Shown one piece after another: positions 22,805 through 27,862 of a stretch of DNA of 64,000 nt. Position numbers and translations under genes: made by a program. The notes beneath the pieces were generated by a model. The model saw nothing but the letters and a program-made list of their open reading frames with translations. It had not been told where the DNA came from and did no database searches. Source of the DNA: Acinetobacter phage Ab15; the sequence record PP763259.1. The stretch is one strand, 5' to 3'. Positions within the stretch are counted from its first letter, which is position 1, and each line of letters begins with the position of its first letter.

Positions 22805-25576
22805 TTATTGACAGTTATCACATTCTTCATGTCGCTTAATATCACCAGATCCCCTCATAGAGTAGATGTAGTATAAAGCTAAGATACCTGCATTTTCCAA
22901 AGCATATTTGTGAACCTTCATAATATACTCTGGAGTGTCATTACTTGTAAAATACAAGTTGATTGACTGTTGCTGATCAATATATTGTTGTCGTTGTGCA
23001 CACAAATCCAAATGTTTGATCATGTCAATCTCAAAGGCAGTTCTAAAGACATCCTTCTCATGCTGAGTCAACCAGTGAACATGTTGTACAGAACCTTTAT
23101 GCTTATTGATGTCATTGATTACGTCTTCATTGTAAACACCACGTTCCTTCATGATCTCTAGAAGGACCTTATTAACCCTCCAGATATCTCCTCCAGCACT
23201 CTGCTTAACGAACACCATAGCAACATCTAAACCAATACCTTCAGAAGCACCAGCCATAATCTCTGCTGTTGACTTTGTAGGTGGCATCATCATCGTTGTT
23301 GCATTACGGATTCCTAAATGAGCGCACCCTTCAGGCATACCAACTTCACGAGCCAACCACTTAGAAGCAGCTAAGGTTTGATCTCTCATACCCTTAAAGA
23401 TTTCTTCATTTAACCAGAAGCTCTCAAGGCTACCTACCACAATTCTACGTTTTTGTAGTAGTGTGTGGAAACCTAATACACCTGTACCAACTGCACGGAA
23501 TCTCTTGGTGAAGGCTAAGATTTTTCTAAATGCCAAGGCATCCTCTTTACCTTGCTTAGTTCGGTTTTCCATAAACTCGATGTAGTCACTCACATTACAA
23601 TCTTGCATTACATGTGCAATAAATGCTAAGTGAGGACATCTCGATTTCCACTCATCGTATAAGTCAAGGTTCAAGTTCAGAATTACACAAGAGAATGTAT
23701 GCTTCTCATCACTACCAAGTAACACTTCTTGGCAATTCATAGTATTCAAACCATTGAACATCAACATGTTACGTTTTGGCTCAAGTGCACAATATGTATC
23801 ATCAAATCTTCCTTGGTCGATCACTTCATCAACACATACAAATCTTTCAGCAGAACGTTGAGGTTTTCTTTCACTCCATTTTAGGCGGTGTGTTTTTAAA
23901 CCTAACTGACTCAACTTAAAGAGACCTGTACTCGATACAAGAAGACGATAAGCATCTTGGCATTCAAACAGTCCTTTATCACCCGTACCATTATTGAGAG
24001 GTAATTCTTTTAGACCACCTACATCCCTCAAGACAACCTTTGAAGAAACACCAAGTGTTTGTAACATCAATTGCACATCTTGTAAGAATGTCTTGTGAAT
24101 GCTTACCACTTGGATAGATTCATTTTCACCATTACGAGCAATAGTTCCATCTGAATCTAGGAGTCCAGCAAACCATTCCAATCGGCTTTCAACAGTGTAC
24201 TCAGATGTTGGTACAAAGAATTTATCCTTAAGTCCTTCACTGTGAGTAAGCTTAATACGATCACCACCTTGAAGTCCTGACACTGAAGAAACGCAAGTTA
24301 TATTTTCAAGTAACTCCTTCTTCTTACCATACAAGTATGTGTGTTTTTTACCTTTGTATTCAAAACCATCACCAGTGAAGAATCCATTAGTGTAAGCATG
24401 TTCGAGGGTCTTGTCACCTAAAATAACTGGTAGATCAAATTTAGATAGTCGATCACCAGACTTCAACTCGTAGGCACGTTTAATGACCTCATTGCCATCC
24501 TCACCAACAACCTTAAAGCGGTGATACTCTGTGCAATCTAATTCATACCCTGAATCAGTTACCACTTTAACTAACTTCTGATTTTCACCAGTTTTGATAA
24601 TTGTCACTTCAGACCATTCAAAACCATTCCACACCTCGACCTGTTGTCCCTCAAGGTCAGAAATCGTTTGATATCCACTTTTAGTTAAGATTAATGTCTC
24701 AGGTGAAACACACAAATTAGAAGCTTTCGCTGTCATACCTGCATCTTTAAATGCCTGAGCTAAGTGGCGGTTCATTTCATCAATCTTAGTGAAGTAACCC
24801 TTACCACGTTGCATCTTGATAGCAATAGCTTTAGCTAATAGGGCAACTGCTTCTGGGTCATCCTTGACTAACTTCTCAATGTACTCGTCCTTACATAACC
24901 ATGCTGGGTTATTACTTTCAGGTCGTTTGAATAAGTACTTTAAAACTTCCTCAAACTCGGGATGTTCAATACTTACAGCATAAGATAAACTACCTCTACG
25001 GCTACCTTGAACAACCTCATCCATACAGTTGATTAAGTCACGGATAAGAGGCATAACCCCACCACTGTAACCACCACGAGGTAGTTTCTTACCTTTATAG
25101 GCCCAATCATCAATTGAGTAAGATGTACCATGTGAGTGCTTAGTTAGGATAGCTGCTTCAGTCACACAATCATAACGAGAGAACAAGTCATCACCAACAT
25201 AACCGCTAGCACAACTTACTGTTGATCCCCTTTCAGGTAAACCACTGTTCGCCAATAAAGGAGTTGAACAAGACACATAACCATCCCAAAGTACGTCAAA
25301 AAACACCTCCTCCCAAGTTTTACCAGCCGTATAAGTATCCACATTCCACCAAGAAGGGTACTTATCTGGTGCATGTTTAGCTAAAGTCTTAGCAATCATT
25401 TTATAGCGAGCTTTTACAGTCTCACCATTCCACGAATACTTTTCAAAGAACAACTGAGTCCCACCAGTGGTAAACCATTTAGGGATCTCTCCATGTTCTT
25501 GTAGTTTTTTTCGAAGTTGACTGTAACTGTCAACCCCGTATAATTCCAATGTCTCTAAATAAGATAAAACAGCCAC
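22805..25576 (-). CDS. nrdA: ribonucleotide reductase large subunit (class I NrdA-like) interrupted by an intein
   Basis: Extein motifs VSCSTPLLANSG, SNL-[intein]-CQEVLL...FSCVILNLNL match the NrdA SNLCxEI...LCxLxxxNL active-site region. Mature extein length about 597 aa, no ATP cone. Confidence 0.8.
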   Translation of the reverse strand: MAVLSYLETLELYGVDSYSQLRKKLQEHGEIPKWFTTGGTQLFFEKYSWNGETVKARYKMIAKTLAKHAPDKYPSWWNVDTYTAGKTWEEVFFDVLWDGYVSCSTPLLANSGLPERGSTVSCASGYVGDDLFSRYDCVTEAAILTKHSHGTSYSIDDWAYKGKKLPRGGYSGGVMPLIRDLINCMDEVVQGSRRGSLSYAVSIEHPEFEEVLKYLFKRPESNNPAWLCKDEYIEKLVKDDPEAVALLAKAIAIKMQRGKGYFTKIDEMNRHLAQAFKDAGMTAKASNLCVSPETLILTKSGYQTISDLEGQQVEVWNGFEWSEVTIIKTGENQKLVKVVTDSGYELDCTEYHRFKVVGEDGNEVIKRAYELKSGDRLSKFDLPVILGDKTLEHAYTNGFFTGDGFEYKGKKHTYLYGKKKELLENITCVSSVSGLQGGDRIKLTHSEGLKDKFFVPTSEYTVESRLEWFAGLLDSDGTIARNGENESIQVVSIHKTFLQDVQLMLQTLGVSSKVVLRDVGGLKELPLNNGTGDKGLFECQDAYRLLVSSTGLFKLSQLGLKTHRLKWSERKPQRSAERFVCVDEVIDQGRFDDTYCALEPKRNMLMFNGLNTMNCQEVLLGSDEKHTFSCVILNLNLDLYDEWKSRCPHLAFIAHVMQDCNVSDYIEFMENRTKQGKEDALAFRKILAFTKRFRAVGTGVLGFHTLLQKRRIVVGSLESFWLNEEIFKGMRDQTLAASKWLAREVGMPEGCAHLGIRNATTMMMPPTKSTAEIMAGASEGIGLDVAMVFVKQSAGGDIWRVNKVLLEIMKERGVYNEDVINDINKHKGSVQHVHWLTQHEKDVFRTAFEIDMIKHLDLCAQRQQYIDQQQSINLYFTSNDTPEYIMKVHKYALENAGILALYYIYSMRGSGDIKRHEECDNCQ
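23735..24712 (-). mobile_element. intein (326 aa) with LAGLIDADG homing-endonuclease domain inside nrdA
   Basis: Begins CVSPETLILTKSGYQ (block A). LAGLIDADG-type motifs NGFFTGDGF and LEWFAGLLDSDGTI. Ends ...MLMFNGLNTMN followed by +1 Cys, which is the catalytic Cys of the NLC(x)E motif. Penultimate His replaced by Met. Confidence 0.8.
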
Positions 25577-25586
25577 AAATACCTCC

Positions 25587-26150
25587 TTACTTACTTCCTT
25601 GTAATCCTTTATTCTCTTCTGAATCTTCCATGATCAGCTTCAAGAGTTCTTCTTGTTCCTCTTGTTCTTTCTTCCTCATATTATTCCAAGCTTCTACAAA
25701 CATAGCCTCAGACCAGTTACTTTCATACTCTCGGTTTTGACCCTTAGTGAAGAAATCTGGCATCTGGTAACCGTATGTATTTAAGTTAAACATCTTAGCC
25801 ACTTTAGAATCCTTCTGAGTAACTTGAAACTCTTTAGGGATTTTATCTACAGGAACCTGCAAACGAGTCAAGAAAGTAAAGATTCGGAAGCGCACAAAAT
25901 CAATGTACTCGGCTGTTGTATACCCATTAAGTGAACCTGAAGGGATTGCCATATCAATGATTCGCTTCTCATGCTCTAACACGTAGTGGCAAGCTTGTAG
26001 TAACTTTCCAAACATTTCTTCATGCTCATGTAGAGGTTTCCCTACTTCATGGAAATAGGTGTTAAAATGTTCTGCGGCGTAAATTCCATGCAACATGGGT
26101 TGTTCAGGTGTGCTCGTTACACACACCCCGTAGAGTACTTCACCACTCAA
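25587..26150 (-). CDS. nrdB: ribonucleotide reductase small subunit, C-terminal exon (exon 2)
   Basis: 187-aa ORF with no ATG at its 5' end (track start is TTG). In-frame stop 13 codons upstream. Continues the ferritin-like fold begun in 26539..27306. Confidence 0.65.
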   Translation of the reverse strand: MSGEVLYGVCVTSTPEQPMLHGIYAAEHFNTYFHEVGKPLHEHEEMFGKLLQACHYVLEHEKRIIDMAIPSGSLNGYTTAEYIDFVRFRIFTFLTRLQVPVDKIPKEFQVTQKDSKVAKMFNLNTYGYQMPDFFTKGQNREYESNWSEAMFVEAWNNMRKKEQEEQEELLKLIMEDSEENKGLQGSK

Positions 26151-26538
26151 GTACTCACAGCTTACACTTTCATGTAAGATCAGACTATATCATCACCACA
26201 AGGTTTTACTTGTTGTGGTGCTTCCCACTTCGGTCTTACTTAAGACCTACTCCCCGAAGGGATAGTCGTTGAGGATTCTAAACCTAATTCCAACCACAAA
26301 GCTTTCCAACGTTTTTTATGCCTAATTAACGAAACATATCTAATGTATCCAGAAAATTTTGGATGTTTAAATTTTTCCATAATTACCTCCATAATAAGAG
26401 GTTGGAATTAGGTTTAGCTTTCCTGCTGATTGCCCAATACTTTAGATTTTTACTCAGTGTTTAAATTTTTCAACACTTCAGTACTAAAGTCTCTAAGGGG
26501 TTTCCAGCATTTCAAGAAGTTTATTGAGGACTTGCAAA
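26151..26538 (-). ncRNA. group I self-splicing intron (ORF-less) in nrdB; boundaries approximate to within 40 nt
   Basis: Minus-strand RNA contains R-like element CAACGACUAUC (fwd 26261..26271) and S-like element GAUAUAGUCUG (fwd 26181..26191), able to form P7 (GACUA/UAGUC). Also a CCCUUCGGGG tetraloop hairpin, a GGUCUUAAGUAAGACC hairpin, and a P9-like CUUACA-UGAAAG-UGUAAG hairpin just before exon 2. No ORF of 60 aa or more on either strand. Confidence 0.65.
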
Positions 26539-27306
26539 TTAATCCTCATCTAGTGCACTCTGGTTAGCAATTTGGGCAATAACTTTAATTAAGTTAAAAC
26601 CATTTGTCTGGAAGCTCTTAAGGATAGCAAAACTAGAGAACAACAAAGCTGTCTCTGTTAAAGAGAAGCACAAGCATGCAAGCATCTTGTTTTCATCTCG
26701 CATTAAACCATCTAACCATTCCATACGTTCATTGAGTACAGGGTCATCAATGTATGATGTGTAGTAATCATCAGTATCTAGTCCAAGTACAATGTTAATC
26801 TCATTGTACGTTCGTGCATGGACCATCAACTCAATCATTGCTAAAGCAGAAGCACCAGCACGGGATTCATGTCGAGGGAATACTTTAATGAATAATCCAT
26901 TCCAGAATTCATCACCAACAATTAATTCATACTGTAAGAATAAGTGTAGAACTGTTTTTACTGCATGTAGTTGCTCTTTAGTTAGCACATACTCAAGTTC
27001 CATCTGGTCATTCTTGACTTCCATTTCACTCTTAAACCACATCTGCTCTTCAAGCTGCTGGTCAGCAATCTCAAGAATCTTTGGGTACTTAATCTCATAG
27101 CCACTATTGGGTGATGTAATACGGGTTTGCACTAATCCAGTTTTCTCTGAATTTAATGTTTTGTTTATTGTCACATAAACGAATTTCCCTTCAGGGTTTT
27201 TCTCATCCTTGACATTGATGATAACCTTTCCAGCCGGTGGTGGTAAAAATCTAATCTTCTCAACCTGACCTTCGGTTAAATCCACCTCAATATTAATTTT
27301 AGACAT
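26539..27306 (-). CDS. nrdB: ribonucleotide reductase small subunit, N-terminal exon (exon 1; stop codon lies just inside intron)
   Basis: Contains di-iron/tyrosyl-radical region ...SALAMIELMVHARTYNEI... (Ex2H + Tyr register of NrdB) and ...CLCFSLTETALLFSSF... (second Glu ligand helix). ORF ends where the NrdB helix with the RDExxH ligands should follow. Confidence 0.7.
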   Translation of the reverse strand: MSKINIEVDLTEGQVEKIRFLPPPAGKVIINVKDEKNPEGKFVYVTINKTLNSEKTGLVQTRITSPNSGYEIKYPKILEIADQQLEEQMWFKSEMEVKNDQMELEYVLTKEQLHAVKTVLHLFLQYELIVGDEFWNGLFIKVFPRHESRAGASALAMIELMVHARTYNEINIVLGLDTDDYYTSYIDDPVLNERMEWLDGLMRDENKMLACLCFSLTETALLFSSFAILKSFQTNGFNLIKVIAQIANQSALDED

Positions 27307-27385
27307 CTTAACTCCTTTTAATTTTTAAAATTATAAATCATAAACTCCATGTAAAAGTAAGGCCACTCAATGGTGGCCTCTTCTG

Positions 27386-27862
27386 TTATTTACGTTTAAT
27401 TCTTGCACTGGTAATTCGAGGTTTATCTGAAGAGCGATGATACTCAATTTCAAAACCCAACTCATTTAAGATGTCTGAAAATTCACGAGAGGTTAAATTG
27501 GAGTCAAACAATGGTACATCCTCACCATAATTCTTGACAACTTTAATACCTTGAATTTCCTTACGAGATACCTTTTCCAAGATTTCTTCACAAAATAACT
27601 TAGCGAATAAGTCACACAGTGTTTGTACTGCTGGTCGTTTCTCTGGGGTTCGAAAACCGTTCTGGTCCTCTAATGAGTGCCAACCCCACCAACGACCTTC
27701 ACCAATATCTGTTTGTGCGAATAAACTTCGAGTATTTCTTTTGTGATCCTGATAATGCCCAAGTCGCACAATAAAGTTATCTAGAGTATTCCCTGTCATG
27801 TCTACATAATTAGGACGTTTGGTAGGGTCTTTCTCTTGGACTTGGTTTACTGTTTCAATCAT
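27386..27862 (-). CDS. hypothetical protein, first gene of the minus-strand nrd transcription unit
   Basis: 158-aa ORF (…DIGEGRWWGWHSLEDQNGF…) with RBS. Function not recognised. Confidence 0.4.
   Translation of the reverse strand: MIETVNQVQEKDPTKRPNYVDMTGNTLDNFIVRLGHYQDHKRNTRSLFAQTDIGEGRWWGWHSLEDQNGFRTPEKRPAVQTLCDLFAKLFCEEILEKVSRKEIQGIKVVKNYGEDVPLFDSNLTSREFSDILNELGFEIEYHRSSDKPRITSARIKRK

Follow-up and report, generated by a model that had tools for sequence, protein, structure and literature searches.

The nrdB gene of Acinetobacter phage Ab15, which encodes the small subunit of ribonucleotide reductase (RNR), is interrupted by a 448-nt segment that we interpret, with a probability of roughly 93%, as a group I intron of the phage IA type that is predicted to self-splice and that probably has a history of homing (Table 1). 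The insertion is exact to the nucleotide when compared with closely related phages, its removal restores the open reading frame, and all pairings of the ribozyme core are present, with covariation between phages. Throughout, the window is the whole 64,000-nt stretch of DNA that was analysed (sequence record PP763259.1), and a slash within a sequence marks a junction.

Table 1. Features of the nrdB intron and its surroundings in the Ab15 window.
Feature	Position	Strand	Details
nrdB exon 1	26542..27306	-	255 codons; ATG at 27306; ends ..GAU GAG GAU; colinear with AM24 nrdB to 26542
Extra N-terminal residues of NrdB	27100..27306	-	~45 residues, relative to KIL phages
First metal-ligand motif	26818..26832	-	NrdB residues 159-163
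P1	26526..26547	-	exon GAGGAU (26547..26542) with guide GUCCUC (26531..26526); U26542·G26531 wobble at 5′ splice site
Group I intron, 448 nt	26094..26541	-	starts with in-frame stop UAA; ends on omega-G 26094
P10	26536..26532 with 26093..26089	-	P1-loop UGCAA with exon 2 UUGCA, 5 bp
P3	26513..26519 with 26227..26221	-	CUUCUUG with UGGGAAG; from Rfam alignment
P4, P5 and P5a/P5b extension	26424..26509	-	P4 is UGCUGG with UCAGCA; from Rfam alignment, minimum-free-energy fold and P5a covariation with KIL phages
P6 and P6a	26273..26423	-	P6 is GGA with UCC; P6a is a 14-bp stem (26417..26404 with 26291..26278) that encloses the ORF loop
Shine-Dalgarno hairpin	26386..26401	-	CCUCU-UAUUAU-GGAGG
HNH homing endonuclease ORF remnant	26240..26392	-	50 codons from ATG 26392, or 46 from ATG 26380 (annotated start in R2096)
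Catalytic core	26182..26272	-	J6/7, P7, P7.1, P7.2, P3 3′ strand, P8
P7	26269..26263 with 26187..26182	-	GACUA with UAGUC, plus A·U across a bulged C
P7.1	26262..26251	-	UUCG-loop stem
P7.2	26247..26232	-	hairpin between P7.1 and P3 3′ strand
P8	26220..26194	-	8 bp
P9	26178..26161	-	GAAA-loop hairpin
P9.1	26156..26133	-	8-bp hairpin, GAGUACUU with AAGUACUC
P9.2	26127..26107	-	followed by UGAACAACCCAUG, which ends in omega-G
nrdB exon 2	25587..26093	-	starts UUG CAU GGA (L H G); stop codon 25589..25587
Charged C-terminal tail of NrdB	25590..25680	-	~25 residues, ..RKKEQEEQEELLKLIMEDSEENKGLQGSK, relative to KIL phages
nrdA	22805..25576	-	carries an intein
nrdA intein	23735..24712	-	326 aa, LAGLIDADG domain

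Intron borders and the predicted spliced product

Six Acinetobacter baumannii phages (YMC13/03/R2096, P577, Herod, Mithridates, Bestia and AM24, the last of which is described as a myovirus) match the window at 97-98% identity over the 2 kb around the nrdB intron. The window carries nrdA directly after the nrdB fragments on the minus strand. Comparing allele lengths with a 2,001-nt query (window 25400..27400) separated these phages into distinct states. The matching region measures 1553 nt (2001 minus 448) in AM24, Mithridates and Bestia, which have no intron; 1875 nt (2001 minus 126) in Herod, which has a 322-nt intron without an ORF; 2001 nt in the Ab15 window, with its 448-nt intron and ORF remnant; and 2409 nt (2001 plus 408) in R2096 and P577, whose 856-nt intron holds an intact HNH ORF. 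These length differences map precisely to the place of the intron.

In AM24, nrdB is a single uninterrupted 1272-nt gene, and the borders of the Ab15 intron were set by a four-way alignment that includes this intron-less allele. Ab15 and AM24 match through ..GAT GAG GAT (26542), the match resumes with TTG CAT GGA (26093), and 26094..26541 is exactly the segment missing from AM24, Mithridates and Bestia. The AM24 allele places the junctions at U26542/U26541 and G26094/U26093. Both the intron and exon 2 begin with U, and a slide of the junctions by one base gives an identical spliced sequence; only the placement given here is canonical, because the slid version would not end the intron on G.

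The initial annotation had proposed one nrdB gene interrupted by a group I intron, not two genes, and the Rfam match described below, the AM24 alignment and the restored ORF all bear this out. It had also correctly placed the stop of the NrdB frame (TAA, 26541..26539) and had correctly described a downstream ORF that opens with TTG at 26150 without an ATG and has an in-frame stop 13 codons upstream; this ORF is in another frame, that of exon 2. Its borders need revision: by the AM24 alignment, the interval of 26151..26538 gives way to the 448 nt in Table 1. The 5′ splice U had been sought at 26569 or 26578, 27 to 36 nt away from the actual U26542, and the omega-G within 26143..26162, 49 to 68 nt away from the actual G26094.

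Joining the exons yields a 423-aa ORF that aligns with AM24 NrdB without gaps and is identical to it at 419 of 423 residues; the exon 1 frame on its own matches the Pfam family Ribonuc_red_sm (E = 1.1e-22). The spliced gene and AM24 nrdB differ at 39 nucleotides over 1272 nt, 11 of which lie in exon 2 (2 of these 11 alter an amino acid). Because only 4 of the 39 differences alter an amino acid in total, both exons are under purifying selection. The spliced RNA would read ..GAUGAGGAU/UUGCAUGGA.. across the junction, where the conceptually spliced protein reads ..NQSALDED/LHGIYAAEH... The second Glu-x-x-His metal motif is intact in this product (DEDLH), with the intron falling between its Glu and His codons. 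HMMER aligned the spliced motif to ..IDEQIH.. of the closest solved structures, and the uninterrupted relatives read DE[DN][LF]H at this site without exception (16 of 16).

The intact motif settles a question about the metal site. SGEVLY had initially been taken as the exon 2 motif, with Tyr in place of His, and this was attributed either to a misplaced junction or to a genuinely unusual metal site. SGEVLY translates 26147..26130, within the P9.1 hairpin and loop of the intron, and the apparent His-to-Tyr change arose because the 3′ junction had been misplaced. Alignment of the spliced protein had been proposed as a means of inspecting this position, and the spliced protein aligns with AM24 NrdB with the His present (DED/LHG). 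The first of the two explanations was therefore the correct one, and no unusual metal site exists at the second motif once the junction is placed correctly.

Differences between Ab15 and AM24 cluster at the insertion site, with 8 of the 39 no more than 30 nt away from it in either direction (Fisher p = 3e-4). This cluster of synonymous changes fits either a diverged endonuclease target or co-conversion in the course of homing. The last two codons of exon 1 are GAG GAU in all intron-bearing alleles, in both of the phage genera considered below, as P1 and the U at the splice site demand. The 16 relatives that have no intron all use other codons here (14 have GAA GAC, one GAA GAT and one GAA AAC).

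Ribozyme anatomy and homologous introns

The Rfam scan that the initial annotation had proposed matched Intron_gpI (RF00028) at 26575..26161 on the minus strand, with 54.9 bits against a gathering score of 50 (E = 3.3e-11). Intron_gpI is the only RNA-family match in the 64-kb window, and no second intron was found there with Rfam (at E up to 0.1) or with the model R1 described below. The Rfam alignment misplaces P1 and stops at P9, the generic model being without P9.1 and P9.2; the junctions therefore rest on the comparison with the intron-less allele and on hand-built pairings. When the Rfam P1 (26575...) and 3′ end (26161) are taken as splice sites, they are contradicted by the intron-less allele. 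The Herod allele scores 82.4 bits with the same family.

P7 is formed by two elements, the R-like UCAACGACUA (26272..26263) and the S-like GAUAUAGUCU. These elements, the UUCG stem (P7.1) and a P9-like GAAA hairpin had all been recognised in the initial annotation, and all are present. P9 had also been thought to abut exon 2, but P9.1 and P9.2 intervene, the three hairpins together spanning 26107..26178 (-), and the last base of the intron is the terminal omega-G. P2 is missing from the intron, the gap between P1 and P3 being only 6 nt (AAUAAA).

P7.1 and P7.2 lie between P7 and the 3′ strand of P3, an arrangement that Michel and Westhof (1990) are said to have given as the mark of subgroup IA. 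A model that contains both hairpins matches the T4 td and T4 nrdB introns, and both hairpins covary. These features point to the phage IA type, to which the T4 td and T4 nrdB introns also belong; the Ab15 intron is IA2-like, with the finer label of IA2 as opposed to IA1 or IA3 being a candidate assignment.

A homologous intron of 408 nt is found at the identical codon position (..AIDED/LHGF..) in the Pseudomonas syringae phages vB_PsyM_KIL1-5 (Flaumdravirus). Between KIL and Ab15, identity is 69% over 312 nt of the intron and only 47% for the NrdB proteins. As in Ab15, the KIL intron starts with UAA, has the same helices and has an identical P1 and guide. It differs in its shorter P8, P9.1 and P7.2 and in residing in a different phage genus and host, and its P6a loop holds an independently decayed remnant of the same endonuclease ORF, with a premature stop after 19 codons. 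GenBank joins the exons of the KIL nrdB CDS, whereas the Acinetobacter phage records do not.

A MAFFT alignment of the Ab15, Herod and KIL introns misaligned P6a, P7.2, P8 and P9.x, and a strand-by-strand check of the helices was used in its place. Helix by helix, every Ab15 pairing is kept in the KIL intron. P1, P4, P5, P7 and P7.1 are identical, compensatory changes occur in P10, P3, P5a, P6, P6a, P7.2 and P9, and P8, P9.1 and P9.2 also differ in sequence while staying paired. For example, P10 is formed by UGUGA with UUACA in the KIL phages, P3 carries one compensatory change (C-G to U-A), and the third pair of P6 is A-U in Ab15, G-C in Herod and U-A in KIL. That one intron occupies this codon in both Acinetobacter and Pseudomonas phages suggests that it has passed from one phage genus to another.

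To describe the 3′ core, a covariance model (R1; 112 nt, P7 to P9) was built from the Ab15 sequence and the hand-built structure. It scores Ab15 at 146 bits, T4 td at 59.7 bits and T4 nrdB at 55.4 bits, and matched 121 introns in IMG/VR loci. In the R1 alignment of 105 distinct phage introns, which is fitted to the model and for which the pattern used to collect IMG/VR loci fixed P7 and P7.1, 97.9% of cells are paired and double (compensatory) changes are seen in 28 of 31 pairs, a result unreached by any shuffle or slid register.

Beyond the homologues at this site, the exact P7 and P7.1 module UCAACGACUAUCCCnnnnGGGAGUAGG is present in more than 120 viral contigs of IMG/VR (loci L034-L153), and several R1 matches can occur on a single contig (six in L056, four in L121). 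Phage IA-type introns with this kind of module are a very large family found in many genes. Same-site introns are rarer in that collection: a search of IMG/VR with the P1/guide/P3 pattern recovered only KIL1 and R2096, and three metagenome matches to the pattern were rejected as unrelated elements in a different gene. The metagenome contigs L155, L156 and L157 carry a group-I-like element with the same 5′ junction and guide (GAGGAU/UAA..AGUCCUC..AAACUU); this element follows a reading frame ending in ..MRQAED, and its core sequences are unlike those of the Ab15 intron. Among 20 NrdB relatives in IMG/VR, 18 are without an intron (no Rfam match, and an uninterrupted site where covered). In the library searched, papers on the KIL phages, on R2096 and on comparisons of Acinetobacter phages do not mention the intron.

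The endonuclease remnant and the allelic states of nrdB

Two domains are recognised in the 182-aa ORF in the P6a loop of R2096 and P577, HNH_3 at aa 50-91 (E = 1.8e-12) and HTH at aa 127-157, and the ORF matches PHROG 59, ‘HNH endonuclease’ (E = 9e-28). Alignment of the Ab15 intron with that of R2096 reveals a deletion of 408 bp, in frame, between short ATACA repeats; its joint lies near 26344/26343. The deletion takes out ~136 codons, among them those of HNH_3 and of most of the HTH domain, and leaves a loop of 112 nt. The initial annotation had called the intron ORF-less, and indeed no intact endonuclease ORF lies inside it; the term nonetheless passes over the HNH deletion remnant in the P6a loop, the gene for which is intact in phages that are 98-99% identical. 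The last part of the ORF shares its sequence with P6a, P7, P7.1 and a portion of P7.2. Since the intron outside the deletion differs from that of R2096 at one base only, which adjoins the joint (99.8% identity), the loss of the endonuclease gene looks recent.

The remnant has no family match. Its Shine-Dalgarno sequence and start codon are kept, and so are the 34 C-terminal residues that follow the matched HTH segment. Whether these 46-50 in-frame codons are retained for a function of their own is a speculative matter, and we regard it as unlikely. The GGAGG of the Shine-Dalgarno sequence sits within a small hairpin (Table 1), a possible relic of control over endonuclease translation. A similar hairpin, CCUCU-UAUU-AGAGG, makes up the whole of P6a in Herod.

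The introns of R2096, P577 and Herod occupy the same site as that of Ab15 and are 99.4 to 99.8% identical to it. They differ in their P6a loops: the HNH+HTH ORF is intact in R2096 and P577, only its remnant is left in Ab15, and Herod has a minimal P6 and no ORF. The empty-site stage is represented by AM24, Mithridates and Bestia, with divergent synonymous codons. The 448-nt intermediate form of Ab15 is absent among the 50,697 phage records searched. It is tempting to see in these 97-99% identical A. baumannii phages every stage of the life cycle of a homing endonuclease and its intron at one codon. Taken as a whole, including the retained remnant as its bolder part, this reading is doubtful.

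GenBank records of R2096, P577 and Herod give nrdB exon 2 as a separate CDS, which in R2096 is misnamed ‘alpha chain’. In Herod, a free-standing gene annotated as ‘HNH homing endonuclease/DNA-binding protein’ lies upstream of the nrdB region (L003:44-652); at the same position, AM24 and R2096 carry a different ORF on the opposite strand.

Proposed splicing, alternatives and relation to known introns

We propose that nrdB and nrdA would be transcribed together from the minus strand and that ribosomes would halt at the UAA formed by the first three bases of the intron. The RNA would then fold, with exon GAGGAU paired to guide GUCCUC as P1, and an exogenous guanosine would attack after U26542. 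P10 would align exon 2 for ligation of the exons after G26094, and the resulting mRNA would encode NrdB in its normal 423-aa form. The intron presumably arrived by homing, driven by the HNH endonuclease encoded in the P6a loop. The in-frame 408-bp deletion has destroyed this gene in Ab15 and so would have left the intron as an immobile, still-splicing passenger.

There are other possible explanations for the interruption of nrdB. A compact intron of ~390 nt, lying at roughly 26151..26538 and followed by an exon 2 near 26150 that encodes SGEVLY and a His-to-Tyr site, would agree with the end of the Rfam match (26575..26161) on a G after the P9 hairpin and with the ORF that opens at TTG 26150. 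It is extremely unlikely, given that 26094..26541 is wholly missing from the AM24 allele, which reads DED/LHG; the product of such a gene would be short of residues present in AM24 and would contain 19 that are not, the SGEVLY codons form the 8-bp P9.1 hairpin, and a P1 bearing the U·G pair is possible only at U26542. A truly split gene, from which two NrdB halves are translated separately and then assemble, has a precedent in the nrdA of Aeromonas phage Aeh1, which is split by mobE. The records of R2096, P577 and Herod do annotate two separate CDSs, and RNR genes that are split and yet functional are on record (PMC3653736). Here, however, the true border of exon 2 offers no start codon and no ATG. 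The only upstream start, TTG 26150, falls within the P9.1 helix with no Shine-Dalgarno sequence before it, and a protein made from it would begin with 19 extra residues encoded by the intron. The break would moreover separate two ligands of one metal site, and the intervening RNA holds a complete, covarying ribozyme core, all of which makes separate translation just as hard to credit as the compact intron.

A little more weight, though still very small, can be given to a dead intron, in which the ribozyme no longer splices efficiently, for example through the P6a-loop deletion, and nrdB is a pseudogene. Outside the deletion, one base differs from the R2096 intron and all helices are intact, and the deletion itself falls in a peripheral loop that Herod is wholly without, while having a higher Rfam score. 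Few non-synonymous changes are seen in the exons, and the downstream nrdA is intact. What speaks for such a state is that the endonuclease gene has already decayed, as in a degenerating element, and that the case for splicing is sequence-based. Among these explanations we thus favour the 448-nt intron that is predicted to splice.

The protein encoded by the joined exons has features of its own. The nearest PDB matches of NrdB are 6cwo, 6cwp, 6cwq, 8dq4 and 8dq5 (E about 1e-19), which we take to be the class Id beta of Flavobacterium johnsoniae. The first metal-ligand motif has the form E-x-x-x-H, which is not typical; it reads IELMVHARTY in Ab15, FELQVHARFY in KIL and MERAVHAEFY in the IMG/VR relatives (loci L008-L026), and the HMMER alignment to ECEF-RHSEAY of 6cwo and 8dq4 needs a one-residue gap. 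An unusual metal site, if there is any, would lie at this first motif rather than at the second. The extra N-terminal residues and the C-terminal tail that distinguish Ab15 NrdB from that of KIL (Table 1) have no family match.

The intein in nrdA is inserted at ASNL/C...N/CQEV, directly before the conserved NLCxE motif, which presumably holds the catalytic cysteine, and its removal would leave an alpha subunit of 597 aa. AM24 and R2096 probably carry this intein too, because the length of their nrdA CDS is identical (2,772 nt). Both RNR genes are invaded at essential motifs. Selfish elements are known to target the most conserved codons of RNR genes, and the nrdB intron and nrdA intein repeat this pattern. 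No other phage genes are interrupted by introns and inteins as often as those for RNR (PMC3653736).

For annotation, the consequence is that nrdB, listed as two unrelated CDSs in R2096, P577 and Herod, should probably be given as one gene, the correct product of which would be a single 423-aa spliced protein. The allelic series is found in phages that are considered for therapy, and it could serve to measure homing and endonuclease decay. The general understanding of group I introns is unchanged; what is added is a second distinct intron site in phage nrdB, placed exactly between two metal-ligand codons.

Of the known systems, the T4 td intron (I-TevI) resembles that of Ab15 in its 3′ core, as seen in its R1 score, and in having an endonuclease ORF that ends at the start of P7; it differs in its host gene and in the GIY-YIG family of its endonuclease. 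The T4 nrdB intron shares the function of its host gene, the 3′ core architecture of P7, P7.1, P7.2, P8 and P9, a reading frame that stops right at the 5′ splice site, and an HNH-family endonuclease ORF just upstream of P7 that runs into the core. The T4 enzyme, I-TevIII, is likewise a truncated HNH endonuclease, a deletion derivative by the T4 record’s own note. The likeness to T4 nrdB drawn in the initial annotation thus holds for the kind of element but not for its insertion site, which is ..YVSFAC/TFNF.. in T4 and ..DED/LHG.. in Ab15. Judging from the E. coli NrdB sequence, the T4 site presumably lies ~27 codons upstream of the Glu-x-x-His site used in Ab15. There is no DNA similarity between the two introns at the blastn level, a P2 hairpin is apparently present in T4 nrdB and none in Ab15, and Ab15 NrdB may be class Id-like, by its nearest PDB matches, rather than class Ia. 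The T4 nrdB and Ab15 introns are independent insertions of one type of intron into genes of the same function.
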